A stretch of DNA of 51,400 nt from Leucoraja ocellata (taxonomy: Eukaryota), in the NCBI GenBank assembly GCA_036785375.1, contig JAWMAR010004410.1, positions 1 to 51,400 of the forward strand. Direction: 5' to 3'. Under the pieces are notes generated by a model that saw nothing but the letters and a program-made list of their open reading frames with translations, was not told where the DNA came from and searched no databases. Shown here piece by piece: positions 11,523 to 36,142 of the stretch. The translations under genes and the position numbers were made by a program. Position 1 is the stretch's first letter, and each line of letters begins with the position of its first letter.

Positions 11523-12258
11523 AGGGTGATTTCACCAAAGGTCAAATGAGCGTAGACCCCCCATCACGTGACCGAAAATTTTAACTGGAGGACATCTCTC
11601 AGTTCGGTACATGTAAGTGAATGGGGAAACAGCACTTTCCCACCCGTTAAAAACATGGAAAACGGCCGATTTTTGAGCTGAAATTTTCTGTGCTAGTCGG
11701 GGTGACCGTGAAGCACAGCGACCTAAAATTTCAGGCAAAATAAAAGATAGAAAGTAAGGTAAATACAAGAGGGAACTGAAGGTGGAACACAGCGGAAGTG
11801 AACAGCCGACATTTGCCGTGGAGATTTTAAGATCCAAAATATCGGGAATTATCGCGTTTGCTCGCTAAATTTCATCAAAAGTAAGTTAATAATGCCTTCC
11901 TTTTGATGAAATTCAGCGAGCAAACGCGATAATTCCCGATATTTTGGATCTTAAAATCACCACGGCAAATGTCAGCTGTTCACTTCCACTGCTTTCTACC
12001 TTCAGTTCCCTCTTGTAATTACCTTACTTTCTATCTTTTTTTTGCCTGAAATTTTAGGTCGCTGTGCTTTACGGTCACCCCGACTAGCACAGAAAATTTC
12101 AGCTCAAAAATCGGCCGTTTTCCATGTTTTTAACGGGTGGGAAAGTGCGTGTTTCCCCATTCACTTACATGTACCAAACTGAGAGATGTCCTCCAGTAAA
12201 AAATTTCGGTCACGTGAGGGGGGATCTACGCTCATTTGACCTTAGGTGAAATCACCCT
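11523..12258. mobile_element. Fold-back (palindromic) non-autonomous DNA transposon, copy A only
   Basis: Arms of about 360 bp are near-perfect reverse complements around a ~20-nt spacer (about 11881-11900). Ends are AGGGTGATTTCACC...GGTGAAATCACCCT, flanked by AT/AT. The paralogous empty site is GTTT-AT-TGAACT at about 29557-29568. Confidence 0.9.
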
Positions 12259-12309
12259 ATTGAACTACTAACGGGAGTATCATTGACAAATGTATTTATT
12301 TTCCACCAG

Positions 12310-12657
12310 GAGTTCCGCTAATCACAAATTTGATCCAGCCACGTCTGGTCAAAGTGTGCAGAGGCGAGTCCGTCACGTTAAACTGTACGTTTAGTTATAA
12401 TGGAAGTGTGAATGCCTGGCTCCGCGTTTCATGGTATCGGAAATCGCCTGGAGGGGCTGATATTACTTACAACACGAACAACTCGCTCTGCATTCCTCAC
12501 CCCCTCTGGGGTGGTTTCAACAACTGTACAGTATCACTGATGATTGAAAATGTATCGTTTGGTCACTCTGTTTACGACTACATCTGTGCGGTGAAGGTAC
12601 CAAATGTCTTCCCTCCAATTTATGAAACGGGCCAAGGAACACGAATACAGGTTTATG
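12310..12657 (+). CDS. IgSF receptor copy A, exon 2: VJ-type V-set Ig domain
   Basis: Acceptor TTTTCCACCAG| and donor ATG|GTAAAG; 348 nt, phase 1-1. V-set motifs GESVTLNC, WYR, SLxIxNV, YxC and a J-like GQGTRIQV. Confidence 0.92.
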
Positions 12658-13316
12658 GTAAAGTATTTGTAATACCATGATGATCTCCAGTCTCGCCACT
12701 TTATGTTTATGAAATCAATAATATTATTGACCCAATTAATTTTTAAACTTCTAACAAAGTAGAGGCAGTGGTAGATCTTTTTCATGATTACAGCTATGTG
12801 CTCTGCTTAAGCGAGGTCATCTGAGATGTTATCATCCAGGAATTTGAAGTTGCTAACTCATTCCACCATTGACCCAATCTTAAAAACTGCATGTTGTCGC
12901 CCGACTTCACCATTCCAAAGTTAATGATTTGCTACTTTGTTTTGTTGACCTTGAGTGAGAGTTTGTTGTTGCAGCACCAATCAACCAGTTGTTCCATCTC
13001 TCTCTTGCGGACTGACTGATCACCACCCCTAATTCAGCTAACCACTATGGTGTCATTGTTGAGTTGATAGATGGCGTTGGAGCTATGCTTAGCCACATAG
13101 CTATGGGTGAGAAAAGAGCAGAGCAGGGTTGGTCTCCTTTGTTTGCAACAATTAAGTCTGAGGAGCAATTAAATTGCAGTGCATTAAATTATGTGAGGTC
13201 TCAACAAACAAACCAGAAAGGACTTGGATCTCGTTGCCCGGAGTAACTTAGAAGCATAGATGTAATTTAGCTGGTAGACAAAATTGGGTTGATGTTGTGA
13301 ACAAATAAATTCACTT

Positions 13317-13462
13317 GGACGTACACAAAAATGCTGGAGAAACTCAGCGGGTGCAGCAGCATCTATGAAGCTTCCTTCGCTCCATAGATGCTGCTGCACC
13401 CGCTGAGTTTCTCCAGCATTTTTGTGTACCTTCGATTTTCCAGCATCTGCAATTCCTTATTA
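13317..13462. mobile_element. Short Penelope-associated hairpin insertion with 17-bp TSD (paralog about 31887-32030)
   Basis: Flanked by AACAAATAAATTCACTT (13300-13316 and 13463-13479). Contains a perfect 47-bp inverted repeat (13321-13367 / 13383-13429). Confidence 0.75.
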
Positions 13463-13651
13463 AACAAATAAATTCACTTAATCAGTGGCAGTGACTGGAA
13501 TTCATCACCAGAATGGGTAAAAGAAGTAGAAATCTTCACCAAATTTCATGTACCTGAATAAGCACTTGAAGTGCATCACTTACAGGGCTTTGAACTTGAG
13601 AAGTGAGAGTCAATTTAACGTATGTTTTAGAGCAGCATGTATCTCCTACAC

Positions 13652-13884
13652 CAGGGGTTCTCAACCTTTTTCATCCCGATTACCACTGGCAACTTTAATA
13701 GCACATAACAATGTTATTTCACATATATGAACAACTAATGATGAACAGATACCGGTATGCCAGAACCAAACACAGTCAGTCAATGAGAAAAAATATGTAC
13801 AAAATCCAGACTCAACAAATTTACCCCCTAGGTAGGCGAAATTTACCCTCTGGGGGTAAATTTATCCCAGGTTGGGATCTCTTG
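13652..13884. mobile_element. hAT (Charlie-like) MITE (paralog 32230-32464)
   Basis: Imperfect TIRs CAGGGGTTCTCAACCT / AGGTTGGGATCTCTTG. 8-bp flanks are TCCTACAC / TTCTATAC (TTCTACAC in copy B), consistent with a hAT 8-bp TSD. Confidence 0.75.
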
Positions 13885-14261
13885 TTCTATACCATAAATT
13901 TCTACAGTGATTATTATTAACTCAAGTTACCACTATTCTCTCACTGAAATGTTTTACTGTGCATTACTGTGCATTACAAGTATCGCCAATACTAACCAAA
14001 AGACTGTGAGTCTGTTGGATATACATGATCTCATTTTGCCAGGACCATGGAGTAATATTATAATGGTCCAGCATATATTTGATCCTTGATGCGTCTCAGC
14101 TAAAGAAGGGCTATATTTTTTTTATAATTCTACATCATTAATTTAACATATTCTCTATGAAAATAGAGCAGAATTTTGGACAACTTACTCTGTCAGTAAG
14201 TTTCACTAACATTGAAATGTGTGATATATAGTTTAATACTTTATGCTTTATCTTCTCTCAG

Positions 14262-14552
14262 ATCTTCCAGAAATGTATATACGGAGTGATACTTTGGTTG
14301 CTGGTCATGAATCCACTCTAACCTGCACTGGCAAGGGATTGTACGACAAGGATGTCTCCTTTACATGGACATGCACTTCTACAAATATCACTGCACCAAC
14401 TTTTGAAACAGACAGGAATGGCACACTAGTTGCCACCAGTCATTACAAGATTGTCCCAAGAGTGGAAGACAATGGAACTGTTTGCAGTTGTCAGATTAAT
14501 CATTCCGTTTTTAGACGGCCAGCTGTAAATACGATCAAACTAAATATTATGT
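14262..14552 (+). CDS. IgSF receptor copy A, exon 3: C1-like (or nectin/CD80-type C2) Ig domain
   Basis: Acceptor CTCTCAG| and donor T|GTAAGT; 291 nt, phase 1-1. Motifs LTCTGKGLYDKDVSFTW, DRNGTLVATS and CQINHS. Confidence 0.92.
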
Positions 14553-16438
14553 GTAAGTATCATCTATAACTTTTGAAGTGGTATTCAATGGTTGCTAATT
14601 TTTGAATTCTTATTGTATGCACATTGTTGTGTTATAACTGATATGCACTGTACATCACCATCTATACCAGTCTAACTGAATGTCTTCTGCATCTACTTTA
14701 CCTGTTCATTGACCCAGTTCCATTAGTTTTATCACTTACATTTTCTCTCATTTATATTGTTCTTGGTTTCTTCTATTTTGCCTTCCTCTCTTGTCCTGTT
14801 ACTCAGACCCAAAGTTTCAATTCACCTTTCTCAATTGCTTTTAATTAATCTGCCCCTAATTGTCTTCTAACTATGATGATTATTTCCCAGATTTGAATCA
14901 TTCTCAGTTCAGTTTGAAGCTTATTTATAGATATCTCTTGGTAATCCTATGTGTGTGTCTCCCCACCTCCACTGAGGCAATCTTAAAAGCTAATCCAGCT
15001 AACCTTCCTTCGCAATCAGAGTTTATGACACTTACAGGGTGGATCATTATTCATCATCCCTCTCCCTTCCATATTCATGTTCTATCCTATTTATTTTAGA
15101 ATTGGACTTTTGCCATCTAAGTCCTCATTGTGCGTGTGTGCATTGATAAAAGTATTTCAAATATAACTAATTGCTCCTTCTCCAAACTTCTTGGCTACGG
15201 CCTCACAGAGGTTCTATGTTCCCTTTCACCAAAACTCACTTTCTTCTGTCCTTATCCATCTCCTGCAACACTTCACCCTTTGGTTGGTGGCGCGACTCAC
15301 CCGTTGCAGCGCCCCCTACAGCCTTTCTGTCTTTTTTTTATTTTTTGTCTAGTTAAATGTAGTGTTGGTGTTTTTTTTAATACTAGTTTTAAATGTGGTA
15401 TATGTGGGGAGCAGGGGGGGGGGGGGGGGGGACTTGTTTGTGTGAATTAAATTGTGTGTATGTCTGTAGGAAATTGTCTTTGTTTGTATGGCTGTGGAAA
15501 CAGAATTTCGTTGACAATAAATTGTATTGTTTTGTATAGTATTGTATTGTATTTTGCATCTCTGCTTGTTTTGTACTTCATTGCAATGAGTGGTATCTTC
15601 TTCTCGCTATTTTCAATGCCCGTCTTATGTACTTGTCTTAACCTTAGGTCTTTGAGTTCATAGCCCTCTGTCCTGCAATAACTTTGTTTTCAATATCAAT
15701 TCCTCTATTCATGGCCACACCAACAATATTCCCTTATCATGTGTAGGAAGAAACTGCAGATGCTGGTTTAAAAAGAAGATAGTTGGAGTAACTCAGCGGG
15801 AGTAGGGTCTCGACCCAAAGCGTCACCCATTCCCTCTTCAGAGATGCTGCCTGGCCCGCTGAGTTACTCTAGCATTCCCTTCACAGGTGGCCCTAGTACT
15901 CTCACCATATGCAGGGGTATCTGTGATCATTTGTGGTAGCCGTATAAATCACTTACAACCCCACACCCACCTGTGTTCCGACAGGTGAAGGAAATCACCT
16001 AAGAATTATATTACTGGGTTGACTCTTCAAACGGTTAGGCATTTGGACCTCCATTTGCTACGTTTACCAAACACTTCATCTCGTTACTACCAGCTGTATA
16101 ACCATCGAACAATTCTACATTTCTCCAGTCGTAATGTCGAAGATTCTCAACTTTCATCGTGCAAATGGTTCATTAAGCTCTAGCATTCACTCCCCTTTCC
16201 TCTCCGCATCAATCCCTCACTCTCCATAGACAAGAACAAGCTTAGCTTTTTGTTACGTATTCGATTCTTTCCAACTTGGCTTCAGTGGCAGTCCGTGTTG
16301 TACTGAGGCCCCTTGAGAATGATTAGCTTTCAGAAGTGCAAAATTTGATTGTAAATAGCTGTTCTGTGTCTACTTGCATGTTAATTCTTTTCACATTGCT
16401 TTAATCTACAATAAAGTGTACATTATCTTTACCGTTAG

Positions 16439-16756
16439 ATGGACCACAAGATCTATTAATAACATACAGGTTGAAAGCAGTGGATACTTTTCGACTGATC
16501 AATGATAGCATCATCTTTGTTGCTGCTGATTCATTCCTGGAACTGAATTGTCGCGTAGATAGTAATCCGGTGCCCACTGTTTTCTGGACAAATGCTACGG
16601 AGAATCATAATGTAACGTTGCAAACTGGAGTCGGGTTCAAAAGTTCAAAAGAATGGATACGTTTCCAGCGTAAAGATGAAGGAATGTATTGGTGCATGGC
16701 AAAAAACGACTACGGCTGGAGAAACAGAAGTATCTCGATAAACACAAAACGGAAAG
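16439..16756 (+). CDS. IgSF receptor copy A, exon 4: C2/I-set Ig domain
   Basis: Acceptor CCGTTAG| and donor AAG|GTAAAT; 318 nt, phase 1-1. Reads (Y)GPQ...LELNCRVDSNPVPTVFW...DEGMYWCMAKNDYG. Confidence 0.92.
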
Positions 16757-17155
16757 GTAAATAGAAATGTAATTATACATGTGCCTAGGTAATTGAGGTG
16801 GAATCATTCTTAGCAAATAACACCTCAGCTTAATTAGTTCAATGTCTTTTTTATTGATCTTAGTGATTGATCAATTGTAATATTTTATTTATTTTACAAA
16901 TCATATGTAGTAAAGACGATTTACTGCTGTCATCTTCAAATGCTTTGATTTTATAGTGTTTCCATTGAAGAATTGGAACATTTAAACATTAGAGTGCTGT
17001 AGTTTTGTTTATAAATGGCAGTGTGTCTCTTTGAAAGAAATATGTACCCTGCTGTCAAATATAGTAAAACGATTGCAGTGTATTTTTTTATACTTTTTAT
17101 GTTTCTCAGAGCTGAAACATTACATTTAGTTGACACCTTGAATTTTCTTTCACAG

Positions 17156-17247
17156 ATTATCCTTGGCTTTATGCCCTGGTCCTGGTCCCCCTAACTACTG
17201 CCATCATTTTGGCAATAATATATTTTTGCCTGTTCCGAAATAGGTAA
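17156..17247 (+). CDS. IgSF receptor copy A, exon 5: transmembrane segment ending in TAA (DYPWLYALVLVPLTTAIILAIIYFCLFRNR*)
   Basis: Acceptor TTTCTTTCACAG|, hydrophobic stretch, and TAA at 17245-17247 where copy B has CAA. The ancestral donor AAG|GTAAAA remains at 17254/17255. Confidence 0.85.
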
Positions 17248-17260
17248 CAAAAAGGTAAAA

Positions 17261-18622
17261 GAGGGTGTTCGGTGGGGGGATTGTGGAGGGGGGGGGGGGT
17301 TGGTAAGGGGTGGTGTGAGTTGGGGTGGTTGTGCGGGGAGGGGGCTGTTGGCGAGGTTTGTGGGTAGGCGGCGGGGCTTGTGAAGGTGGGGGGGTAGTGT
17401 GGGCTGGGGAGGTGGGGGAGGGAGGTGCGGACGAACTGGGGTTGTGGGGGGGTGTTTGGGCGGGAGGGGTTGTGGGGGGAGAGAGCTCAGAGAAAAGAGG
17501 GAAGAGCCATGGTGAAGAGGGGGTATCACGGGTGAGGGGGACAGGAGCCAGCAAGGGAGCTGGCGGTGCGATGGGGATTCACAGCGGGTGCTAGTTGATG
17601 GTTGTTCTCCTCCGCCAGGATCAGAGTCCCTGCTCTCCATTTGGCGACATCTCCGACTCCGCGCCAGGCTGGGGTGGGCCGGTCCGCTTCCGGGCCGTCC
17701 GAAAATTGTCCGTTTGGAGACCTCCGATGGCCATCCTCAGCTCCAGTAAAGACGTGATGGCGCAGGAAGTGGCGGACCATCCCGGAGAGTGACAGGAGAA
17801 AAGACCAATCCATGGGGGGGAGGGGGGGAGAGAGGGAGAGAGGGAGAGAGGGGGAGAGAGAGAGAGAATATCTCGGCTGGTGACTCGGCTATTAGGGGCC
17901 TTGTGGACTGAAATTAGTGGTTTCAAGCAGGCCAAACAACTCATTTCATTTTATTTCCATTTCAAGAACAGAGCAGGGCAAACAGCTCATTGTATTTTCA
18001 TTTCATTTCCATTTCAGTTTCAAGCACAGGGCAGGCCAAACAGCTCATTGCATTTTCATTTCATTTCCATTTCCATTGCAGGTTTAAGCACAGGGCAGGC
18101 CAAACAACTCATTGCATTTTCATTTCACTTCCATTGCCATTGCAGTTTCAAGCACAAGGCAGGCCAAACAACTCATTTTATTTTCATTAAGGGCTAACAA
18201 ATCATTTATTGCAAGTACAATGCAGACTCACAGTTCAGTTGGCAATGGCAATAGAAATGCCGACTCACAGCTTAGAATGAGAGTCATGCTCTCTCCCTCA
18301 CGATCTTGCAGAGTGACTGAGTCACGTCCAGGCATCCGGGGTTTTATAGTCCTGCCCCCCCACCCCCAGAAAGGGCATTACCTTCATCGCGGTGATTGAA
18401 AGGCGAGAGTATCTCATGGTTTTTTAAACACTCATAACTTTTTCATTTTTCATTGATGGGAAAAATCCTCAGGACCTGCTCAGCAGAGGAGGACTGTGAG
18501 TAAGATGGCCAAAAATCATAGCGATATATGACAGCGTTTTTTTCTAAAATCAATATACAGCACAGACAGGCAGTGGTCAAGATGACACTTTTAATTATAT
18601 AGATGATATATAGATGATAGAT
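17261..18622 (+). mobile_element. GC-rich interspersed element, possibly a 5'-truncated non-autonomous Helitron/Helentron-like element; copy A only
   Basis: Absent from copy B. Has G-rich low-complexity tracts, an internal tandem array and a 3' end TTTTAATTATATAGAT(GATA)n. Family assignment is by resemblance only. Confidence 0.5.
17915..18190. repeat. Tandem array of about 5 units of 55-60 bp (TTTCAAGCACAGGGCAGGCCAAACAACTCATTGCATTTTCATTTCATTTCCAT...)
   Basis: Repeated units are directly visible. Confidence 0.85.
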
Positions 18623-20457
18623 AGACCTACTGAAGTTAGGGAGGAAGTTTGGAGAGGAAATTCATTTCTGGAAAAAGTGCAGCATCAACTCTCCACAAAG
18701 CCACCAAGACGTGGAATTATTCATGAAGAGACTTGAAAGGAAAAGCCCTTTTATTTAGTCAACTTTGCAAAGGTTAAAAGGATGAAAGGGAAAGTTGAAT
18801 AATGAGAGAGTGACATAACATTTCACAAGGGGAGCAGCAAGAAAGTTTTGAAATGAAACTCACTGAGAGTAAATTTTGAAAAAAAAATCTAATTCCCTGT
18901 TTGCTGTTAACAGTTTATGGTGGCTTTGAAAAAGAAGAGACAGCAGAGTGAGACTGGATAATATGGAGTCAATTTGATTTAATTGGATTGATTGGATTTG
19001 ATTGGACTTTTTCATGTTGTATATGATTCTCACTATTAGGCTGCGTGACAGCTTAATAAACCAATATGTAAAATTGAAGCTTGAATGCCATCAATGCCAT
19101 TGGAATATTTTTCCTGCTGTGAATCTTATCACTGGCATTTCTTTATTGTCAATGCTTTGCTATTTCTTTTCACTTGCTTCACTTAAGGCTAAAGTACACC
19201 ATCCCCCATGCATTTCCTGTTCAAGAGTGCATTGGAATCACCCAAAAAACCCTCAAGACTGCGGAACGCATTTCTAGTGCAATGTACAGGCCTTTGTTAA
19301 CCAAAGCGTGATGTGTTCTGACCACTACATCTCCATATTTCTCATCACCCAGACCTTTTCAACATGAATGTATAGTATTATTTCACCACAACTATGGAGC
19401 TATATCAACACCTGAAAAATTATACATGCAGATTTCAGAAAAAATTACATGCTGCTTTACAAAACCAGGCCAAGATTCGAGGAAATTGGGTCTGAAATAC
19501 ATCCTCCTTGATGTAGGAAGGAATCTATCGATGCTAATCCATTCTTAGCTCTGTGCAAGAGAGAATATTTAGCATATGTATTTTGGGAATTTTGTTCATA
19601 GCAAGTTTAACGAGCCTGGATAGAGTGGATGTGGAGATGATGTTTCCACTAGTGGGAGAGTCTAGGCCCAGAGGTTATAGCCTCAGAATTAAAGGATGTT
19701 CCTTTAGGAAGGTGATGAGGAGGAATTTCATTTGTAAGGACATGATGAATTTGTCGAATTTATTCTCACAGAGGGCTATGGAGGCCTGGTCCGTGGATAT
19801 ATTTAAGGCAGAAATAAATATATTCCTGATTAGTAAGGGTGTCAGGAATTATTGGAAGAAGGCAGGAGAATGGGGTTAGGAAGGAGAGATGGATCGAACC
19901 ATCGGCAGCGGCGACTATGGAGGGTCAAGGCCCCATACACAGATGAACAAAAGGAGGAAGACTGACTGAACTCTATTGCCTTCCATCACAGTGATCACTG
20001 TGGTGGATGTTTATGTTAAGTTTTATCGTTCTTTTAATTGTGTTGTGTTCTTTTAATTGTATAGCTGCATGGCAACTCAAATATCACTGTACCTTAATTG
20101 GTGCATGTGACAATAAATGTGAATTTGATTTGCTTTGATTTGACTTGATCTTTCTGCTCAGCATTCCTCATGGATGAGTTTCCTAACTCCACACTAAGAT
20201 TTAGTAAAAACATTCATTCATATGGCAATTGCCTTTTCTGTTCCACATTTATGGCTTGTTTTATGCTTATAGGGCAGATTGACTAACAGCTAGTGAATGG
20301 CCACAACAGGTTTTAAATCAGCAATTCAGACACTATTTAAATGCAAAAATAGACAATTGCAGTGAAGTGGCAAAAAAAATGGGAGCTAATGTATCAGCTA
20401 CACATATACTAAATATTGGCCAGAATTATCTTGGTTGGTTTGGGGAAGATCTCATGC

Positions 20458-21018
20458 ATCAGTTGTATAGGGCTCTGGTGAGACCACATCTGGAGTATTG
20501 TGTACAGTTTTGGTCTCCTAATTTGAGGAAGGACATCCTTGTGATTGAGGCAGTGCAGAGTAGGTTCACGGGATTGATCCCTGGGATGGCGGGACTGTCA
20601 TATGAGGACAGATTGAAAAGACTAGGCTTGTATTCACTGGAGATTAGAAGGATGAAGGGGTTCTTATAGAAACATATAAAATTATAAAAGGACTGGACAA
20701 GCTAGATGCAGGAAAAAAGTTCCCAATGTTGGGCGAGTCCAGAACCAGGGGCCACAGTCTTAGAATAAAGGGGAGGTCATTTAAGACTGAGGTGAGAAAA
20801 AAATTTTCACCCAGAGAGTTGTGAATTTATGGAATTCCCTGCCACAGGATGGATTTAAGAGAGAGTTAGATGGAGCTCTAGGGGCTAGTGGAGTCAAGGG
20901 CTTATGGGTTGAAGGCAGGCACGGGTTATTGATAGGGGACGATCAGCCATGATCACAATGAATGGCGGTGCTGGCTCGAAGGGCCGAATGGCCTCCTCCT
21001 GCACCTATTTTCTATGTT
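20458..21018 (+). mobile_element. 5'-truncated CR1 LINE (RT C-terminal region), copy A-specific insertion
   Basis: Encodes LYRALVRPHLEYCVQFWSP. The paralogous site at about 38847 (CTCATGC-TATACTACCC) is empty. Confidence 0.88.
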
Positions 21019-21272
21019 TACAATTACCCATTTTGCACTGAAAAAACAAGGCTCATTTCTACACTAATAATGATGATACTCATTGAAAATCCCATTAAAA
21101 AATAGCTGAGTATTAAAATCCCACATGGTTTTTAGTCAAGTCAAGTCAAGTCAAGTTTATTTGTCACATACACATACGAGATTTGCAGTGAAATGAAAGT
21201 GGCAATGCTCGCGGACTTTTGGTCCCAAACTTAAAATTACTTAGAAAATTATATAACAATTAAAAAATGAAT

Positions 21273-22560: not shown

Positions 22561-22562
22561 AA

Positions 22563-24359: not shown

Positions 24360-27300
24360 CAGTGATTCTTCAAACATTACATGTGGTTTACATAAAATAT
24401 CGCCAAACGTGCACAGCAATAACTTTTGATACCATGAGGAAAATGTAGAAAGGCTCGCGGTTTTATAAAGACTGAATCATGTAGTTGGCCAGCAATTATG
24501 TATTGCTATCATTGATTTTTACGTTCCCATTGCAGATATTATGTGTAAATTCTAATTGAATGCTGGACTTGAGTAAAGAATTGTAGTTCCCCTCTATCTA
24601 GCAAAAAATTAGAGTTATCATGCAGAATCCATTGCCCCAATTGTTACGATGTAAGAATGAAATGCTTCTCATCAGGCACACACCCTGCCTGAGATCATCG
24701 CCCACCAACTCTGGAACTGTCCGAGACGACAAGAAGGTGACCCAAAATCAAACCTATTTCCATATTTGCACAGGACGTTGGCCTCCCACAGCAGACGTGG
24801 ATAGAATAGTAAGATAATCCACAGTCGCACATCTCATGCAATGGCTTCATCACTGATGCATTTGTACGGGTCCGATTTAGGTAGAATTATTTCCAATGAT
24901 AGCTCTTACATGGAGAGCTCGTACATGTGCATATGTCCAGTTGATTTTGTTACCAATTTTCTGAGGCAATAAAATAAAGACAAATGAGGAATTTATTTAT
25001 CAATGCTTTGGACAACCTTCTCAAATCCAACATTATTAAAGAAACATTTTGCCATTACAAACAGTCCAGGCTCATATAAGGAGGTTTATGGCTATTTCTT
25101 TCTCAACTTAAACTCAATAACGGATGAGTTTGCTAAGTTTGCATTATTTCTAGAGCTGTGGAGTCATACAGCACAGAAACAGGCCTGTCACCTCAACTGG
25201 CCCATGCCGAGCAAGTTGACCCACCTTTACTGTTCCCCCCTGCCCATGTTGGCCCATATCCCTCTGTACCTTTTCAACCATGTACCTGTCCAAATGTCTT
25301 TCAAATACTTTTGTCGTACCTGCTTCAACTACCTCCTCTGGCAGCTTCTTCCAGAAACCCACTGCCCTGTGTGTGAATAAGTAGCCTCTCGGGTTCCTAT
25401 TAAAATCTTTTCTCTCTCACTTTATACATATGTCCTCTGGCTCTTGATTCCCCTACTGTGGGTAAAATATCCTGTCCATTTACCCTATCTATTCCCCACA
25501 TGATCGTATATACATCTATCACAGCATCCATCATCCTCATACGCTCCAAGGAATAAAGTTCCAGCCTGTCCAGCCTTGTTTTTATTTGATTTTGATTTAA
25601 TTTATTGTCATTGTCTTCAATTAAGAGACAACGACATTCTCTTACCCTTACAGTCATATAAAAAATAAAAATAAATAGCCTCTCCCTTTAGCTCAAGTCG
25701 CAGCAACATCAAGACAATAGACAATAGACAATAGGTGCAGGAGTAGGCCATTCAGCCCTTCGAGCCAGCACCGCCATTCAATGTGATCATGGCCGATCAT
25801 CCCCAATCAGTACCACGTTCCTGCCTACTCCCCATATCGCCTGACTCCACTATTTTTAAGAGCCCTATCTAGCTCTCTCTTGAAAACATCCAGAGAACCT
25901 TCCTCCTAAGGCAGAGAATTCCACAGACATCCTCGTAAATCGTCTCTGAACTCCTTCCAGTTTTATATTTGACCAGCAGATGGTGCAAGAGCTACACTAG
26001 GATTCAGTACATAAATCAAAGTGCAGATAACTGCAGCAACTGCAGCAACAGTTTTTTTTCTGAAAGCAAGAAAATTACAAATATGGAGCCAAGTAAAAGT
26101 CTGATTATCCGACACACTTGGGAATTTGGAAGTTGGTTGATTGTTGGAAGTTGGTTGACCTTTAAGAGCCCTACCTAGCTCTCTCTTGAAAGTATCCAGA
26201 GAACTGGCCTCCACCGCCCTCTGAGGCAGAGAATTCCACAGACTCACAACTCTCTGTGAGAAAAAGTGTTTTGGCGTCTCCATTCTAAATGGCTTAGCCC
26301 TTATTCTTAAATTATTTCTTAAATTCTTAAATAGTATTTACTTTAGCTACCTCAACAAAGTAATTGGTTCTTGCTTGATACCCTTATTTTTCCAAAGTAG
26401 AATTGTTCTTCCTTGCTGACTATGTAGCTTCTCCACATAAATGCCTTTCTTCTTCATCTGCAAAGCAGTGAGAGAAGACAACCAAATAATGGGCCAATTT
26501 ATCACATGAGCCATCGTACTTGAGTACATTGATTTCTCACAACTGATCACCACTGGGAAAGGCCTAGATTTTTCACCAAATAGGGTGTAAAAGGTAGTCA
26601 CCATCATGGAGAGATTCAGCGTGAAAACAGACACTTTGACCCACCAAATCTGTGCCAACTTACATTATATTTTATCATTATACCCATGTTATATTACATT
26701 TAATGCACCAAACCAAATGTATTTTAAGCATGTAACTGCTATGTTAAATTTATGCACTAGGTGGCGCACTGGTAGAAAAGATAGGAACGGCATCTACTGT
26801 GCCAATAGGTCTGGTTATGATATGGCCGTGTACAGATGCAGGGCAGTTCCACATATGCCATATAAGAGGTTAGTTCACAATCTGACCCAAGAATATAATA
26901 CAGAAGAGTAGAGTCAAAATCAAGTCAACACTTTAATGACTCTGTTCATCACCTTCACTATGATCTTCTCCCTATGAATCTAAAATTCAGTTGGGCCATT
27001 TCTTGCATCTCTCCCTTTTTCTGTATCTCTCTGTCACTGTCTCAGGAGACTAACAATCCACTGACATTTAATATAGTCCAACTGACTCGCACAATGATCT
27101 TGACAAGACTTCCTCCAACATGGTCTCTTGTAAACAAAGAAAATAGGTGCAAGTCGAGGCCATTTGGTACTTCGAGCCAGCACCACAGTGCTGTAAGTCC
27201 ACCTTTCTTTCCCTTTCTCTCAGTGTCACCTTTTCTGTTGCACCTACTCTTAAGAAGACTTTCCTTTCCAGAACACAGGCTCTGGTAAAGTTATTTTCAT

Positions 27301-28359
27301 CATAGGTTTAAGGTAATAAGGTTTAAGGGGAAAGGCTTAATAGGAACCTGATAGGGTGGAGGGTGTATGGAACAACCTGCCAGAGGAGGTAATTGAGGCA
27401 GGTACTATCTCTTGCAGTGTTTAAGAAACATTTAGACAGGTACATGGATAGGACAGGTTTAGTGGGATATGGACCAAAAGCAGACAGGAGGGACTAGTAT
27501 AGCTGGGACATGTTGGCAAGGTAGGCCAATGGGCCTGTTTCCATGCTGTATGACCCTATGACTCTATAACATCTCAGATGTCCTCCACTGAATGTGATTT
27601 CTCCTCTGCTGTGGTCGATGGACCTCCCGTTCACATTTCCTCCATTTAACAAAGATACTATTCCCTTGGTCTTTACCTTTCCACCAGCTGCGATGGGATC
27701 CCACCAGCAGTCACATCTTCCCCACCCCATCTCTTCCTGCTTTCCCTCTGCCACTCACTAATTCACTTATACATTCCCACCCACCTCTCCCTGCCCCCTA
27801 GCTCTTTCTACTGCAACCGTAAGAGATGCTACACTTGTTCCTACACCTATGTCCTCACTACCATCCAGTGGCCTAAACAGTATTTCCAGGTCAGATGTAG
27901 ATTCACAATCTGCTACAACTTTGTCTACTCAATTTGTATTCCTGATGTGATCTCCTCTACATCGGCGAGACCAGCTGTAGATGAAGCAGCTGCCTCGTGG
28001 AAGTGCTCTGTCCCTAATGGCTATTCTGTCTTCCCAGTTGCCAGACCTTTCATCTCCCCTTCCTACTCACACTGACCAGTCTGTCCTAGGCCTTTGCATG
28101 ACCATGGTGAGGTCTAATCCAGATTGGAAGAACAGCACTTCAGATCTCATCTGGGTAATCTACAATTTAGTATGAACAATGAAAATTAGATTATTACATG
28201 TGCTGCAATTTCAGGTAATCCTGTGCTCCCTTTTCTCTCATTTTTGTCATTGTGTAAATAAAGTTGCCCGTCAGATTCCTATTAACTCCCCCTTCACTTT
28301 AAACCTATGTGCTATAGGTTGAACAAGGGCGGAAAAAACATTTTTCAGTGGTGCCAGTG

Positions 28360-28770
28360 CAGGAAGTGAGAGTTAAACTTTATCAAAATGCTTCAATGGG
28401 TGAAAGAAACTTATTTGAAGTAAGACAACCTTGCTGCAGCGAATTATAAAAGGCACTGAAGTCACTCTGACGGCGCATTGACTGGGGTAGCTGTTTTAGA
28501 TGCTGTGACATTGTTTTTGATTCCGTTCTCTTCCAACACGCACTCTGTGGATTTCATTGACACAGATCCTCAGTGTTTGCTTGAACAAAGGCAGTGATAT
28601 TAATCTAGGGAAAGTGAAAACTTCCTTCGGCTCGAACGTAACTTCCTCTGCTCAGTACACCCTCTGGCATTTCACAGTCTCTGATATTCTCCGTCTGCGA
28701 TGCGAGTACACAGCGGACGGATCATCCTCACTTGACATTTGCACGATTGGAGCTGACCGCGGGCGGAGAG
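28360..28770 (+). promoter_or_regulatory. Putative promoter of copy B (same ETS/IRF/PU.1/CCAAT/GC motifs, offset +18040)
   Basis: Near-identical to 10320-10730; GAAAGTGAAA at 28610-28619. Confidence 0.5.
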
Positions 28771-28806
28771 TTTAACATTTCCAGGGCCGGTCAGAACCTG
28801 GAAAAG

Positions 28807-28855
28807 ATGCAACTCCTCCTGAAGCTGCTTTTCATCCTGCATGCAGGAACACAAG
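28807..28855 (+). CDS. IgSF receptor copy B, exon 1: signal peptide MQLLLKLLFILHAGTQ(G)
   Basis: Paralog of 10767-10815, with the same GC donor AAG|GCAAGT. Confidence 0.75.
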
Positions 28856-29611
28856 GCAAGTTATGTTGATCGGACAATCTGTGGACCAAGGAGCCGTGAT
28901 GAGGATCATCATTATGTGGCATATTGCATCGATAGGTAGTTCAGGAGCGAGTCTGTTATTAAAACAGCAAGTCGATTAATATCTCTGCTCAAAGGCCGAG
29001 AAACCCTTCAAAATATTTAGTCTCCATTTAATCTATATTTTTAATGTTGGAATACAAGTTTTGCATCTTCATTGACTGCGATTGCCTGCAAAGATTCAAA
29101 TAGTTAAAACATTTGAGATATAATTCGGTCACTACAACTCCATCAGAGAGCACAAAGCAAGAAACTTACGAAGGTGTAGAAACGAAGAACAGCAGATTCT
29201 GGTTTGCAAGTGAAGACACAGAGTGCTGGAGCAACTCAGCGGGTCAGGCAGGCAGCATCCCTGGAGAACATGGATAGGTGGCGTTTCGGGTCGGGACCCT
29301 TTTCCAGACTTTGAAAAATCATCTCATCCATGTGCCCCTGAGATGCTTCCTGACCCGCCGAGTTACTCCAGCCACTTGTGTCTTTTCTAGCGTCCAAATA
29401 TCACGGTGCCACCTGCCACCGAATCTGCTGAGAGAAGGCATTTGCAACCATCATGGAAGCGAGAATCGTTGTTTGAAAACGTCAGATTTGAATGCGTTTC
29501 TTTTAAGTATTGTTTCCGTTAGAAAACCAATCCCTCGTTCAGTGTGTAAAGTGGATGTTTATTGAACTACTAACGGGAGTATCATTGACAAATGTATTTA
29601 TTTTCCACCAG

Positions 29612-29959
29612 GAGTTCCGCTAATCACAAATTTGATCCAGTCACGTCTGGTCAAGGTGTGCAGAGGCGAATCCGTCACGTTAAACTGTACGTTTAGTTAT
29701 AATGGAAGTGTGAATGCCTGGCTCCGCGTTTCATGGTATCGGACATCGCCTGTAGGGCCTGATGTTACTTGCAACACGAACAACTTGCTCTGCATTCCTC
29801 ACCCACTCTGGCGTGGTTTCAACAACTGTACAGTATCACTGAAGATTGAAAATGTATCGTTTGATCAATCTGTTTACGACTACATTTGTGAGGTGAAGGT
29901 ACCAAATGTCTTCCCTCCAATTCATGAAAAGGGCCAAGGAACACGAATACAGGTTTATG
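29612..29959 (+). CDS. IgSF receptor copy B, exon 2: VJ-type V domain
   Basis: Same splice sites and phase as copy A; open frame ending IHEKGQGTRIQVY. Confidence 0.92.
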
Positions 29960-30754
29960 GTAAAGTATTTGTAATACTATGATGATCTCCAGTCTCGCCA
30001 CTTTATGTTTATGAAATCAATAATGTTAAACGCAGTGACATTTGAACCAAGCCATTTACAGATACTTTAACAGACATAATACCAAGCAGACCCAATTAGA
30101 AATAAGATGACATGAACACATTTCGTTTCAACCTAAATTAATAAGGCATATGACGACACAAAGGGCTGGAGCAATTCAACGGGTCAGGCAGCATCCCTGG
30201 AGAACATATCTGGTCTAGACCTTCTTCAGACCATGTTCCCCTGAGATGCTGACTGACCCGCTGAGTTACTCCAGCACTCTTTCTTTTGTAAACCAGAATC
30301 TGCAGTTCCGTGTTTCACAGAGGTACTTCAAGGTTGGTGTTTCCAGCATTTTTTAGTAATACACGGCTTGTGATACTGTTGCGTTGTCTCATTTGATCTT
30401 AAATCGTATATGAATACCAACAGTGACAATATTGCTCCATTTCTCTTTCTTTTCACGTTCTATTCTGTCCATACCAAAGGATGAGCTGGTTTTACAACAG
30501 TTAAAAAAATAACTCTTTGAGATAGTTTGATTGACTGCATTCAGTTAGGATTCAGTTTGTGATAGATCTCAATCTGCCAATGGAGGAAGGGATGACAGGT
30601 CAGTATGGGAATGGAAAAGCGAATTGAAATGGATAGCAATTGGCAGCTCTTTCCCAGAGTGAGCAATGGTGGGTAGATGGGGATGGTGCATGGAAGGGAA
30701 CATTTTAAGGGGAGTTCACTTCTTGTACTAAGAATTAATGGAAACAGAGCTTAG

Positions 30755-31680
30755 CCAAGTCAAGCTGTTTATTGTCATTGGCACAAGAACGGTGAGGTAT
30801 AGGTGCAGCAAAAATCTGCACACAGAAACATAAATTATAAGTAAATTTATTACATAATCACATTTAATCACATAAAATTCTACAAGACTAAAAAATGGAA
30901 GAAGACTGTAAAACACAATAAGTAAAACAAACAAGTCCATGGTGTTCCATTGTCGTGGAAGGATTGGGGTCGTGTGGGTTGGTTCAAAAAAGTTGTAGGA
31001 AAGTAGTGGTTTCTGAACCTGGTGGTGTGATACTCTAGGCTTTTATACCTTGCCCTATGGTAACAGTGTGAAGAGGGCAAGGTTTGGATGGAGAGATAAT
31101 AGATGCCACCATCTTGAGGCATGTAGGTGGGGAGGCCTGTGGTTGTGATTGCCTGAGCTGAGTCTAGCCTCTTGAGTTCCTATGCATTGAAATTTCCATA
31201 GCAGCCCAAGATGTATTCAAACAAGTCAGAATACTTCCTACAGTACATCAGTAGAAGTTTCTTTGCATGTTGCATAACCTGCCAAATCTTTTTAAACTTC
31301 TAACAAAGTAGAGGCAGTGGCAGATCTTTTTCATGATTACAGCTATGTGCTCTGCTTAAGAGAGGTCATCTGAGATGTTATCATCCAGGAATTTGAAGTT
31401 GCTAACTCATTCCACCATTGACCCAATCTTAAAAACTGCATGTTGTCGCCCGACTTCACCGTTCCAAAGTCAATGGTTTGCTACATTGTTTTGTTGACCT
31501 TGAGTGAGAGTTTGTTGTTGCAGCACCACTCAACCAGTTGTTCCATCTCTCTCTTGCACACTGACTGATCACCACCCATAATTCAGCTAACCACAATGGT
31601 TGAGTTGATAGATGGCATTGGAGCTATGCTTAGCCACATAGCTATGGGTGAGAAAAGAGTAGAGCAGGGTGCTAAGCGGT
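30755..31680 (-). mobile_element. Old degenerate LINE (Rex1-like) in intron 2; only its 31288+ part is retained in copy A
   Basis: Minus-strand peptide RARYKSL...TTRFRNHYFPT resembles RRYRSLKTATTKFRNSYFPT of the 22563 element. Confidence 0.6.
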
Positions 31681-32839
31681 TGGAAATTATATGACTGCCT
31701 TGGTCACCTTTGTTTGCACCAATTTAGTCTGAGGAGCAATTAAATTGCAGTGCATTAAATTACGTGAGGTCTCAACACACAAACCAGAAAGGACGTGGAT
31801 CTTGTTGCCTGGAGTAACTTAGAAGCATAGATGTAATTTAGCTGGTAGAAGAATTGGGTTGATGTTGTGAACAAATAAATTCACTCGGAGGTACACAAAA
31901 ATGCTGGAGAAACTCAGTGGGTGCAGCAGCATCTATGAAGCTTCCTTCGCTCCTAGATGCTGCTGCACCCGCTGAGTTTCTCCAGCATTTATGTGTACCT
32001 TCGATTTTCCAGCATCTGCAATTCCTTCTTAAACAAATAAATTCACTTAATCAGTGGCAGTGACTGGAACTCATCACCAGAATGGGTAAAAGAAGTAGAA
32101 ATCTTCACCAAATTTCATGTACCTGAATAAGCACTTGAAGTGCATCACTTGCAGGGCTTTGAACTTGAGAAGTGAGAGTAAATTTAACGTATGTTTTAGA
32201 GCAGCATGTATTCAATAAATCTCCTACACCAGGGGTTCTCAACCTTTTTCGGCCCGATTACCACTGGCAACTTTAATAGCACATAACAATGTTATTTCAC
32301 TTATATATGAACAACTAATGATGAACAGATACCGGTATGCCAGAACCAAACACAGTCAGTCAATGAGAAAAAATATGTACAAAATCCAGACTCAACAAAT
32401 TTACCCCCTGGGTAGGTGAAATTTACTCTCTGGGGGTAAATTTATCCCAGGTTGGGATCTCTTGTTCTACACCATAAATTTCTACAGTGATTATCATTAA
32501 CTCAAATTACCACTAGTCTCTCACTGAAATGTTTTACTGTGCATTATTGTGCATTACGAGTATCGCCAATACTAACCAAAAGACTGTGAGTCTGTTGGAT
32601 ATACATGATCTCATTTTGCCAGGACCATGGAGTAATATTATAATGGTCCAGCATATATTTGATCCTTGATGCGTCTCAGCTAAAGAAGGGCTATATTTTT
32701 TATAATTCTACATCATTAATTTAACATATTCTCTATGAAAATAGAGCAGAATTTTGGACAACTTACTGTGTCAGTAAGTTTCACTAACATTGAAATGTGT
32801 GATATATAGTTTAATACTTTATGCTTTATCTTCTCTCAG

Positions 32840-33130
32840 ATCTTCCAGAAATGTATATACGGAGTGATACTTTGGTTGCTGGTCATGAATCCACTCTAAC
32901 CTGCACTGGCAAGGGATTGTACGACAAGGATATCTCCTTTACATGGACATGCACTTCTACAAATATCACTGCACCAACTTTTGAAACAGACAGGAATGGC
33001 ACACTAGTTGCCACCAGTCATTACAAGATTGTCCCAAGAGTGGAAGACAATGGAACTGTTTGCAGTTGTCAGATTAATCATTCCGTTTTTAGACGGCCAG
33101 CTGTAAATACGATCAAACTGAATATTATGT
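32840..33130 (+). CDS. IgSF receptor copy B, exon 3: C1-like domain
   Basis: Paralog of 14262-14552; one amino-acid difference (V/I). Confidence 0.92.
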
Positions 33131-34478
33131 GTAAGTATCATCTATAACTTTTGAAGTGGTATTCACTGTATTGCTAAATTTTGAATTCTTATAGTATGCA
33201 TATTGTTGTGTTATAACTGATATGCACTGTACATCACCATCTATACCAGTCTAACTGAATATCTTCTGCATCTACTTTACCTGCTCATTGACCCAGTTCC
33301 ATTAGTTTTATCACTTACATTTTCTCTCATTTATATTGTTCTTGGTTTCTTCTATTTTGCCTTCCTCTCTTGTCCTGTTACTCAGACCCAAAGTTTCAAT
33401 TCACCTTTCTCAATTGCTTTTAATTAATCTGCCCCTAATTGTCTTCTAACTATGATGATTATTTCCCAAATTTGAATCATTCTCAGTTAAGTTTGAAGCT
33501 TATTTATAGATAGCTCTTGGTAATCCTATGTGTGTGTCTCCCCATCTCCACTGAGGCAATCTTAAAAGCTAATCCTGCTAACCTTCCTTCGCAATCAGAG
33601 TTTATGACACTTACCGGGTGGATCAATATTCATCATCCCTCTCCCTTCCATATTCATGTTCTATCCTATTTATTTTAGAATTGGACTTTTGCCATCTAAG
33701 TCCTCATTGTGCGTGTGTGCATTGATAAAAGTATTTCAAGTATAACTAATTGCTCCTTCTCCAAACTTCTTGGCTACGGTCTCACCGAGGTTCTATGTTC
33801 CCTTTCACCAAAACTTTCACCACCACCATCTCCTGCAACACTTCACCCGTTTGCATCTCTGCTTGTTTTGTACTTCATATCTCTCTTTCTCTACCAACAA
33901 AAGTTGATTCTACTCTCCAAGCTTTTGCAATGAGTGGTATCTTCTTCTCGCTATTTTCAATGCCCGTCTTATGTACCTGTCTTAACCTTAGGTCTTTGAG
34001 TTCATAGCCCTCTGTCCTACATTAACTTTATTTTCAATATCAACTCCTCTATTCATGGCCACACCAACAATATTCCCTAGGAATTTGGACCTCCATTTGC
34101 TACGTTTACCAAATACTTCATTTCTCTACTACCAGCTGTATAACCCTCGAACAATTCTACATTTCTCCAGTCGTAATGTCGAAGAATCTCAACTTTCATC
34201 ATGCAAATGGCTCTAGCATTCACTCTAGCATTCACTTTCCTCTCCGCATCAACCCCTCACTCTCCATAGACAAGAACAAGCTTAGCTTTTTGTTACGTAT
34301 CTGATTCTTTCCAACTTGGCTTCAGTGGCAGTCTGAGTTATACTGAGGTCCCTTGAGAATGATTAGCTTTCAGAAGTGCAAAGTTTGATTGTGAATAGCT
34401 GTTCTGTGTCTACTTGCATGTTAATTATTTTCACATTGCTTTAATCTACAATAAAGTGTACATTATCTTTACCGTTAG

Positions 34479-34796
34479 ATGGACCACAAGATCTATTAAT
34501 AACATACAGGTTGAAAGCAGTGGATACTTTTCGACTGATCAATGATAGCATCATCTTTGTTGCTGCTGATTCATTTCTGGAACTGAATTGTCGCGTAGAT
34601 AGTAATCCGGTGCCCACTGTTTTCTGGACAAATGCCACGGAGAATCATAATGTAACATTGCAAACTGGAGTCGGGTTCAACAGTTCAAAAGAATGGACAC
34701 GTTTCCAGCATAAAGATGAAGGAATGTATTGGTGCATGGCAAAAAACGACTACGGCTGGAGAAACAGAAGTATCTCGATAAACACAAAACAGAAAG
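34479..34796 (+). CDS. IgSF receptor copy B, exon 4: C2/I-set domain
   Basis: Paralog of 16439-16756; four amino-acid differences. Confidence 0.92.
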
Positions 34797-34956
34797 GTAA
34801 ATAGAAATGTAATTATACATGTGCACAGCTAACAATGTTCATTGAGGTAGAATCATTCTTAAACCTCAGCTTAATTAGTTCAATGTCTTTTTTATTGATC
34901 TTAGTGATTGATCAATTGTAATATTTTATTTATTTTACAAATCATATATAGTAAAG

Positions 34957-35540
34957 TTGTACAGAGCCTTGGTGAGACCACACCTGGAGTATTGCGTACA
35001 GTTTTGGTCTCCTAATCTGAGGAAGGACATTCTTGCCATAGAGGGAGTACAGAGAAGGTTCACCAGACTGATTCCTGGGATGTCAGGACTTTCATATGAA
35101 GAAAGGCTGGATAGACTTGGCTTGTATTCACTAGAATTTAGAAGATTGAGGGGGGATCTTATAGAAACTTACAAAATTCTTAAGGGGTTGGACAGGCTAG
35201 ATGCAGGAAGATTGTTCCCGATGTTGGGGAAGTCCAGAACAAGGGGTCACAGTTTAAGGATAAAGGGGAAATCTTTTAGGACTGAGATGAGAAAAACATT
35301 TTTTACACAGCGAATGGTGAATCTCTGGAATTATCTACCACAGAATGTAGTTGAAGCCAGTTCATTGGCTATATTTAAGAGGGAGTTAGATGTGGCCCTT
35401 GTGGCTAAAGGAGTCAGGGGGTATGGAAGAAGGCAGGTACAGGATACTGAGTTGGATGGTCAGCCATGATCATATTGAATGACGGAGGCTCGAAGGGCCG
35501 AATGGCCTACTCATGCACCTATTTTCTATGTCTATGCATG
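34957..35540 (+). mobile_element. 5'-truncated CR1 LINE, copy B-specific insertion in intron 4
   Basis: 170-aa RT C-terminal ORF. The paralogous site at about 16915 is empty. Confidence 0.9.
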
Positions 35541-35789
35541 TAACGACTATTTACTGTTGTCATCTTCAAATGCTTTGATTTTATAGTGTTTTTCCATTGT
35601 AGATTTAACAAAATTAAACATTAGAGTGCTGCATTTTTGTTTATTAATGGCAGTGACTTCTGGAATTGAAAGAAATATGTACGCTGCTGTCTAATAAAGT
35701 AAAACGATTGCAGTGCTTTTTAAAAACTTTTTATGTCTCTCAGAGCTGAAACATTACATTTAGTTGACATCTTGAATTTTCTTTCACAG

Positions 35790-35891
35790 ATTATCCTTTT
35801 CTTTATGCTCTGGTCCTAACTATCCCCCTAACTACTGCCATGATTTTGGCAATAATATATGTTTGTCTGAACTGCAAGAGGCAACGGAAAG
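35790..35891 (+). CDS. IgSF receptor copy B, exon 5: TM plus stop-transfer (DYPFLYALVLTIPLTTAMILAIIYVCLNCKRQRK)
   Basis: Acceptor TTTCTTTCACAG| and donor AAG|GTAAAA; 102 nt, phase 1-1, open. Hydrophobic helix followed by a basic cluster. Confidence 0.88.
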
Positions 35892-36142
35892 GTAAAACTT
35901 AAAATAAATCGTTGGTTGTAGGTGTTAACCAAATCGACAACAATAGCCAGCTGAAAAATAATGTGGTTTTCAATCAATCGTGTTATTTCACAATCCGTTT
36001 TGATATCCTATGTGTTGCTTGCTGGGTTAATTTCATGGCTAAGCCTCTCTTTGGTTAAATAAGTGTTACATTTCAAGTTAGAATATCATGAAAGATCTTG
36101 TTCAATACTTTGCAGCAATGCCCTGGTTTCAAAAATGAATTT

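Follow-up and report, generated by a model that had tools for sequence, protein, structure and literature searches.

Divergence mosaic in a tandem pair of skate immunoglobulin receptor genes: probable gene conversion of promoter and ectodomain

The window analysed here (51,400 nucleotides of Leucoraja ocellata, contig JAWMAR010004410.1) contains a tandem duplication, of about 18 kb, of a skate V–C1-like–I-set receptor gene. The two copies, A and B, are about 97% identical over the promoter and the outer domains versus about 91% at the ends. The pattern is probably due to an old partial duplication whose core was later overwritten by repeated gene conversion; the V exon of a third gene, C, would have been overwritten likewise, with B inhibitory and C activating. 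In the mechanism that we propose, part of the gene would have been duplicated long ago, leaving the tail exons outside the unit, and the core would have been converted in several tracts of different age, conversion halting at large unshared insertions and ahead of the transmembrane (TM) exon. Through its V exon, C would have been kept matched to the ligand-binding domain of inhibitory B.

Layout of the locus and gene models

Self-BLAST showed A and B to be direct tandem copies (Table 1). B encodes a leader, V, C1-like and I-set domains and a TM, followed by a long tail with ITIM/ITSM-type motifs (TIYAVV, VSYADI and SEYSVV) that are kept across sharks and rays; TIYAVV we take to be ITSM-like, from the ITIM/ITSM motif consensus. 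The ITIM exons fall outside the duplicated unit. Copy A is without tail exons and stops three codons past its uncharged TM, at an in-frame TAA (17245-17247) where B has CAA, a point that the first-pass annotation did not mention; the second contig of the assembly has the same stop. The A segment 17261-18623 has no counterpart in B. The two alleles of B differ in the V-set exon by 10 non-synonymous and one synonymous changes. Neighbouring the receptor genes are one V-set exon (P0180) and a PALP-family, cystathionine-beta-synthase-like gene.

Table 1. Features of the window and of the last exon of B, with strand and basis or remark
Feature	Position	Strand	Basis or remark
Copy A duplicated unit: tail-less receptor gene and upstream region	6696..21273	+	self-BLAST; collinear with G000:C136 minus strand
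5' diverged edge, about 8.5% from B	6696..7587	+	
Low-divergence tract in A: promoter region, leader, V, C1-like and I-set exons	7645..16906	+	
A leader exon, GC splice donor	10767..10815	+	matches P0001 N-terminus
A-only foldback (MITE-like) insertion, TA-flanked, about 50 nt upstream of V exon	11521..12260	.	arms 350/371 alike
A V-set exon, J-like GxG motif inside exon	12310..12657	+	Pfam V-set match was on the B copy
A C1-like exon	14262..14552	+	exon comparison, domain search
A I-set/C2 exon	16439..16756	+	exon comparison, domain search
3' diverged part: end of intron 4, TM exon, downstream DNA; about 8.8% non-coding	16907..21135	+	
A TM exon, hydrophobic stretch without charged residue	17156..17254	+	
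Copy B region homologous to A unit	24636..39684	+	self-BLAST, second-contig comparison; 3' end visible only against the A copy of the second contig
Low-divergence tract in B, matching	25956..34947	+	
B leader exon, GC donor	28807..28855	+	
B V-set exon	29612..29959	+	
B-only 1.26-kb segment, about 70 nt downstream of V exon	30029..31288	.	self-BLAST
B C1-like exon	32840..33130	+	exon comparison, domain search
B I-set/C2 exon	34479..34796	+	exon comparison, domain search
B-only LINE-like fragment, 3' border of low-divergence tract	34957..35539	+	class from reverse-transcriptase-like reading frame and multiple matches
B TM exon, open, 3-nt insertion private to this allele	35790..35891	+	
B cytoplasmic exon 1, beyond duplicated unit	44237..44264	+	matches P0001
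B cytoplasmic exon 2	45600..45643	+	P0001 comparison
B cytoplasmic exon 3, ITSM-like TIYAVV	50789..50848	+	kept in sharks and rays
B cytoplasmic exon 4, ITIM VSYADI	50927..51024	+	
B last exon, SEYSVV	G000:C136:1570373-1570513		off-window

Copy A is predicted to be either a decoy anchored in the membrane or a copy in decay that conversion has kept intact, the chances being about even. That it is a non-functional partial duplicate, its intact look a mere by-product of conversion, we rate just short of an even chance. Its tail exons were never duplicated, it has a premature stop, nine of the 11 changed codons of the TM exon alter the residue or create the stop, and the tail-less model of Amblyraja ends earlier still and is 5'-incomplete. 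Against this, neither haplotype shows damage to the reading frame, the splice sites or the hydrophobic TM, even though the converted tract ends before the TM exon, and tail-less or short-tailed copies recur in Amblyraja and Rhinoraja, with a short-tailed twin in coelacanth.

Divergence between A and B and its causes

The hand counts of the first-pass annotation were exact: A and B differ at 18/348 positions in the V exon, 2/291 in the C1-like exon, 7/318 in exon 4 and, in the window, 16/99 plus three gap columns in the TM exon; the leader exon differs at 1/49. The 3-nt TM indel that it reported is present, but it is private to the B allele of the window, the TM exon of B in the second contig being 99 nt long with 14/99 differences from A.

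For non-coding DNA, the unit was aligned as chained BLAST blocks (a global MAFFT alignment was misaligned around the large insertions) and the best two-breakpoint model was fitted to gap-masked columns. Differences amounted to 165 of 6467 columns within the tract (2.55%), 72/841 to its left (8.56%) and 154/1754 to its right (8.78%), and the log-likelihood gain was 75.7 versus a maximum of 10.8 in 60 permutations. At 9 kb, the tract is long for a single conversion event. By self-BLAST, identity was 97.7% over A 8116-11522 but fell to 88-91% at A 6696-7587 and to 85-90% at A 18624-21135, the edges being more diverged as had been claimed. The region 8270-11520, described earlier as near-identical, does show lower divergence than the edges but is about 2% diverged, and the low-divergence tract starts near 7620-7650 and not at 8270. 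The core is uneven (fixed differences over seven non-coding blocks, chi-square p=1.7e-6) and broken by unshared insertions, and the longest identical run of A and B is 255 nt.

The second contig carried both copies with the same mosaic and the same borders; two haplotypes make up the DNA-level comparison. Fixed A/B differences were 1.7% in the core versus 7.6%/7.5% at the edges (Fisher p=1e-18), with 105 fixed non-coding sites within the core; the divergence between the B alleles (B1-B2) reached 2.0% in the core, against 0.9% and 1.7% at the two edges. Since B1-B2 divergence is not lower in the core while the fixed A/B differences are, a slow-mutating core fails as an explanation. The within-haplotype sharing pattern was seen at none of the 10,098 four-way columns of the two haplotypes (0 H sites), and therefore no very recent conversion was caught in the act. 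The A alleles, A1 and A2, are separated by 11 substitutions over 6635-19011, an unexpected near-identity over about 12 kb that may reflect a sweep or faulty phasing.

Both copies were also found in Amblyraja, one tail-less (P0003) and one with an ITIM tail (P0004). These share ectodomain residues that are missing from A and B of the window, and four TM positions split by paralog in both genera. Ectodomains grouped by species and TMs by paralog, as the first-pass annotation had predicted for per-exon trees with related species, here at the protein level and with automatic gene models (P0003 is without leader and part of V). In LG+G4 trees without mixture model, the second and third domains rejected a clade of tail-less copies (p-AU 0.002). 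The earlier proposal of an old duplication, with later homogenisation of promoter and ectodomain that spared the TM end, is supported by this grouping and by the two levels of divergence.

Among other explanations for the mosaic, an unequal crossover between the direct tandem copies, followed by a second, could have replaced the core of one of them with that of the other; from two haplotypes this and conversion cannot be told apart, and we consider it unlikely. The direct orientation and the very long tract suit it, as does RefSeq P0001, in which a leader and V identical to those of A run on into a TM and tail of B type, the structure expected of a fusion haplotype. P0001 may, however, be a merged gene model, and the differing core blocks and the insertions inside the tract are better fitted by several short events. 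Gene conversion is also preferred to an assembly artefact. A collapsed or chimeric consensus of near-identical copies would suit the difference between A1 and A2, only 0.06% in the core versus 1-3% elsewhere in the window, and the window is a short separate contig; but the mosaic and its borders recur in both contigs, the fixed core sites separate A from B, the A-specific intron-4 segment 16932-17133 reappears without a substitution in contigs from two public runs, each of a different study and one perhaps the source of the assembly, and a separate genus has the same TM-by-paralog pattern, which makes an artefact very improbable. A single duplication date, with purifying selection or slower mutation keeping the core alike, would agree with the presence of promoter and exons in the core and with low dN/dS in the second and third domains. 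It is largely refuted and scarcely credible: low divergence extends over 6.5 kb of non-coding DNA, repeat remnants among it, B alleles are not less divergent in the core, and ectodomains group by species. The first-pass annotation, too, had argued that one duplication time does not account for the pattern.

Gene C and its V exon

Gene C lies head-to-head with B, 7 kb outside the window; no convincing candidate for its leader exon was found. Its TM has an arginine near the outer end, a feature (Arg-TM) also present in stingray P0067 and sawshark P0026, and its tail is without tyrosine. C and B are 80% identical in V but only 30% in the second domain and 32% in the third, which diverged anciently, and their DNA similarity is limited to about 450 nt around the V exon (dS 0.13). 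The V of C nests among the skate A/B alleles (support 99/97); its second and third domains cluster with the stingray and sawshark Arg-TM proteins (96/95, 100/99), and a single clade of C V and sawshark C V was rejected (p-AU 1e-4) in a test framed after the identities had been seen. These trees suggest that C likely acquired a B-type V exon by gene conversion. A crossover between inverted genes inverts the interval rather than swapping one exon; since B and C are inverted, unequal crossover cannot explain C. With C as outgroup, seven of the 12 fixed V sites side with B, four with A and one with neither, a split that points to no one direction of A/B conversion.

In the B/C pair, B carries the inhibitory ITIM/ITSM tail and C the charged TM and a short motif-free tail, and the ligand-binding V exon is homogenised. 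From these features, C is predicted to be an adaptor-coupled activating partner that would oppose inhibitory B. Reads of X24 covered exons of A/B at about 1-2x, with none on the A TM exon, reads of X22 covered none of the exons, and four runs gave no depth on the second exon of C and at most about 1x on its V; none of these values bears on expression.

Family identity and comparison with known systems

Siglecs carry an arginine directly after the canonical F-strand cysteine column. In the present family, the column after the invariant C109 holds A, E, V, I, T, K or M, and R in 0/29 sequences; the arginine is also missing in A, B and C. PMC6288428 describes an arginine on the V-set F strand as essential. 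By this V-domain test, a Siglec identity was rejected; the RefSeq names 'sialic acid-binding Ig-like lectin' come with the source records and test nothing. Pfam searches on B gave V-set (E 1e-8), C1-set in the second domain (5e-7 vs 4e-3 for C2-set_2) and Ig_3/I-set in the third. The best matching stretches of Siglec-8 and MAG covered domains 2-3 only. Foldseek ranked MAG first, at 18% identity, and did not discriminate between MAG, nectins, CD22 and SIRP; identity to solved structures was only about 17-19%, and ESM Atlas matches were generic three-Ig proteins.

The analogy with Siglec-5/14 and Siglec-11/16 drawn earlier for A and B does not fit, the V being non-Siglec and A uncharged and tail-less; with no charged residue and an early stop, A did not qualify as a charged-TM or ITAM partner of B. 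It is B with C that resembles the Siglec-11/16 arrangement: head-to-head, of opposing predicted signalling type, with a converted V exon. PMC5701461 describes SIGLEC11/16 as a head-to-head pair, about 9 kb apart, whose conversion tracts are fragmented. Shared with the Siglec pairs are an ITIM gene whose neighbour has a converted 5'/ectodomain part and a spared TM, and second and third domains resembling Siglec-8 and MAG. In contrast, the skate V has a J-like motif and the second domain fits C1-set better; A, although converted and in tandem, is tail-less and uncharged instead of activating, and the arginine of C lies near the outer end of the TM.

PMC5112662 reports, for Xenopus CEACAM, conversion confined to the ligand-binding exon and its splice flanks in oppositely oriented inhibitory and activating genes, to which the C/B tract of about 450 nt around the V exon compares. 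The skate genes belong to another family, however, C has no cytoplasmic ITAM (its tail is tyrosine-free), and its tract is of old rather than recent date (dS 0.13). 'Merohomogenization' of mammalian KLRC, KLRI, KLRB, Ly49 and PIR, as described in PMC3210942, affects only the ligand-binding parts of opposing receptors after speciation; the skate locus differs in having two tiers, the whole ectodomain with A and the V exon only with C. The family profile of V plus second domain matched SIRP-alpha (E 2.4e-34), SIRP-gamma, the non-rearranging VJ-C1 gene UrIg2 and Ig lambda V-C, over about 200 positions; an ITIM/ITSM tail is shared with SIRP, but the skate third domain is I-set/Siglec-like and not C1. 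The SIRP make-up of a VJ-type V plus two C1-set domains is thus not that of the skate protein, of which only V and domain 2 aligned to SIRP.

The process, homogenisation of paired receptors, is known, in a family apparently undescribed so far: no paper on this receptor family or on conversion at this locus was found, in a search that left most subscription papers outside and possibly missed earlier skate work. A broader proposal, which we put forward tentatively and at rather less than an even chance, is that of an undescribed, jawed-vertebrate-wide, non-rearranging VJ-C1-I paired-receptor family, in which the inhibitory/Arg-TM split predates the shark-ray divergence, V-exon conversion re-matches the pair, and tail-less decoys have been repeatedly added in skates and kept current by whole-ectodomain conversion. 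If true, inhibitor, activator and decoy would form a three-way system that follows a fast-evolving ligand, the first in cartilaginous fish within the literature searched. The locus extends the ectodomain-restricted concerted evolution of paired immune receptors from mammals and frogs to cartilaginous fish, in a family labelled Siglec in databases although without the Siglec arginine. It makes a compact test case: an inhibitory gene with polymorphic V, its tail-less near-twin, and an ancient Arg-TM neighbour that has just the V exon in common with them. It is also a caution that automatic gene models, like short-read mapping, will merge A and B. In public runs, summed contig depths of the core were about 2x those of A-specific DNA, such depths not being copy number, and contig pieces with B-type letters but without the LINE insertion may be collapsed paths.

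Structure of the duplicated locus

Within a 3.44-Gb assembly, the window makes up the whole of contig G000:C4410 (51.4 kb), and part of a second contig, C136 (6.2 Mb), is collinear with it on the minus strand at 97–99% identity; we infer that C136 carries the other haplotype. Self-BLAST showed that the locus is duplicated in direct tandem, offset by about 18 kb, and leader, V, C1-like, I-set and transmembrane (TM) exons are present in both copies, A and B. The tail of B is encoded by four further exons and one off-window, specifying the motifs TIYAVV, VSYADI and SEYSVV. Since the duplicated unit stops short of all these exons, at about 39.7 kb in B, and since a TAA follows the uncharged TM of A by three codons on both contigs, the duplication was partial and A can encode only a tail-less protein.

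Features of the receptor locus (window positions unless another contig or locus is named)
Feature	Position	Orientation	Observation
Core	7645–16906 (A)		Low-divergence tract
A/C136 near-identity	6635–19011		11 substitutions in 12.4 kb
GC donors, leader intron	10816 (A), 28856 (B)
Foldback element (A)	11521–12260		740 nt, TA-flanked, arms 94% identical
Stop codon of A	17245–17247		TAA
64-nt tandem repeat	17941–18188		A-specific DNA 3' of TM exon
Inter-copy spacer	21273–24635		Decayed LINE reverse-transcriptase region, 22644–24166
Indel	21273		About 1.4 kb found on C136, missing from window
Minisatellite, B intron 5	41412–41624		27 nt, 7.9 copies
Exon remnant, B intron	41941–41983
Tail exons of B	44.2–51.0 kb
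PALP-family gene	L006:8381–9123	+	About 30 kb past the end of B; presumably cystathionine-beta-synthase-like, by resemblance
Gene C (third paralog)	G000:C136:1638637–1650859 (L016, L017, L030, L031)	inverted, head-to-head	About 7 kb beyond window start
Unnamed V-set exon	L019:8260–8622	−	About 20 kb past gene C

Divergence between copies A and B

With every column 3 nt or less from a gap masked and unalignable insertions left uncounted, non-coding DNA of the two copies differed at 165 of 6467 positions in the core (2.55%) and at 72/841 and 154/1754 outside it. A two-level fit gained 75.7 in likelihood, whereas none of 60 permutations exceeded 10.8, which bears out the mosaic divergence noted in the first-pass annotation; its four exon counts were exact on recount, and its 3-nt TM indel exists but is private to one B allele. 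In a four-way comparison of A and B on both contigs (10,098 columns), fixed A/B differences numbered 105/6257 in the core and 61/801 and 130/1733 in the edges, versus 127/6257, 7/801 and 29/1733 between the B alleles (Fisher p = 1e-18). Accordingly, the distance from A to a B allele about equals the distance between the two B alleles in the core, and is five to ten times that distance in the edges. Assuming equal rates, Jukes-Cantor distances of 0.026 and 0.093 put the time since the core was last homogenised at roughly 0.3 of the time since duplication. The near-identity of window and C136 covers almost exactly copy A (divergence elsewhere in the window is 1–3%), and it could reflect a sweep, recent common ancestry or a phasing artefact.

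Under gene conversion, the tandem copies would pair out of register and sequence would be copied from one to the other, in either direction. Core divergence is uneven between blocks (p = 1.7e-6) and the longest identical A/B run is 255 nt, so that several tracts of differing age are likelier than a single 9-kb event. A double crossover between the copies in place of conversion is the less likely alternative, as the uneven divergence and the unshared insertions inside the core fit several short events better. Counting against conversion, no within-haplotype shared A/B site was found among the 10,098 columns. Conversion, the mechanism originally proposed, is upheld as the preferred reading, but the Siglec-14-type partner proposed with it is not, since A has an uncharged TM and no tail.

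The 3' border of the core falls at a 583-nt LINE-like insertion in B, and no core exon is more diverged than V (5%), which lies between the foldback insertion of A and a B segment of 1.26 kb; such large unshared insertions (heterologies) could bound conversion tracts. Selection could also fix the border, because a conversion tract running across the TM exon would leave B silent or bring A nothing useful. Contig depth in public runs suggests that the foldback element is a high-copy repeat. Between the B alleles, the V exon has 10 non-synonymous and 1 synonymous differences, and the second and third domains 3 and 4 (Fisher p = 0.047, small counts); from these substitutions, the V exon of B looks to be evolving under diversification. 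In the V F strand, the C136 allele of B shares A110 and N112 with Amblyraja protein P0004, residues absent from the window's B allele, possibly a trans-species polymorphism.

Copies in other skates and gene C

A RefSeq protein of Leucoraja erinacea matches the V domain of A at all of 115 residues. XP_055516779.1 (P0001) has leader and V identical to A, a third domain identical to that of A on C136, and a B-type TM and tail; it may be an A–B fusion allele or a merged gene model. Two Amblyraja radiata models, from contigs of equal length, fall in its cluster: P0003, stopping right after the TM, and P0004, with a full tail. Their second and third domains are 97–98% alike, with residues in common that neither window copy has, and their TMs split at four positions in the same way as those of A and B. 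Thus, ectodomains grouping by species and TMs by paralog, as had been predicted, were found in Amblyraja. Forcing the three tail-less rows together on these two domains was rejected (14 rows, p-AU 0.002); the species grouping received only modest support in free trees (84–95 bootstrap). In Rhinoraja, two copies, one with a long and one with a short tail, are 96–99% alike, and the TM features they have in common are absent in the other two genera, indicating either an independent duplication or conversion running through the TM. Two B-tailed transcript proteins each carry a different subset of A-type residues. The exon remnant in a B intron corresponds to the terminal exon giving Rhinoraja P0002 its short tail, and no in-phase AG acceptor for it is present on either contig.

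A search with V hit A and B on both contigs and a fifth locus, gene C, on C136; within the range that was scored, the assembly has one copy of gene C. Its V, second, third and TM exons are canonical and its short tail lacks tyrosine; no leader exon was found at its C136 locus. Its TM bears an arginine close to the outer end, as do its stingray (P0067) and sawshark (P0026) orthologs. An arginine in the outer TM would be expected to couple to FcR-gamma-type adaptors. Identity to B is 80% in the V, 30% in the second and 32% in the third domain, and DNA similarity is confined to about 450 nt, comprising the V exon (dS 0.13) and flanks matching at 36/48 positions upstream and 35/38 downstream. In trees of 25–26 rows (LG+G4, without mixture model), the second and third domains cluster with the stingray and sawshark orthologs (96/95 and 100/99), whereas the V sits inside skate A/B (99/97; P0067, having no V, was excluded). 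A group of skate and sawshark C V domains, named only after the identities had been seen, was rejected (p-AU 1e-4; 24 rows, partial P0039 dropped). From this discordance, the V exon of gene C was likely replaced from B in an early skate.

SIGLEC11/16 are head-to-head genes with fragmented conversion tracts (PMC5701461), and conversion in Xenopus CEACAMs is confined to the N exon (PMC5112662); PMC6288428, PMC12227049, PMC10751288, PMC6795676 and PMC3210942 were also consulted. A search of openly accessible papers turned up nothing on this receptor family or locus. Homogenisation of A, B and C is a new instance of an already known process, to which it adds the skate lineage, the tail-less twin A and an off-window arginine-TM gene with a probably converted V exon.

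Family relationships and naming

The same three-domain layout occurs in sharks, rays, chimaera, coelacanth, paddlefish, bowfin, bichir and arowana, and databases name these relatives Siglec, MAG-like or CADM-like. The essential V-set F-strand arginine of Siglecs is present in no aligned family sequence. V and the second domain align to SIRP-alpha, UrIg2 and Ig lambda, and the second and third domains to Siglec-8 and MAG; an AlphaFold model, with pLDDT averaging 71 overall and about 90 across the Ig domains, is about equally similar to MAG, nectins, CD22 and SIRP-gamma. The family resembles a paired receptor system and should not be classed as Siglec or SIRP. Coelacanth P0174 and P0035, one long-tailed and the other short-tailed, are 96–98% alike in all three domains and differ in TM and tails. 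Among other relatives, the TM of P0036 contains an arginine, and bamboo-shark P0010 has two near-identical V domains in tandem.
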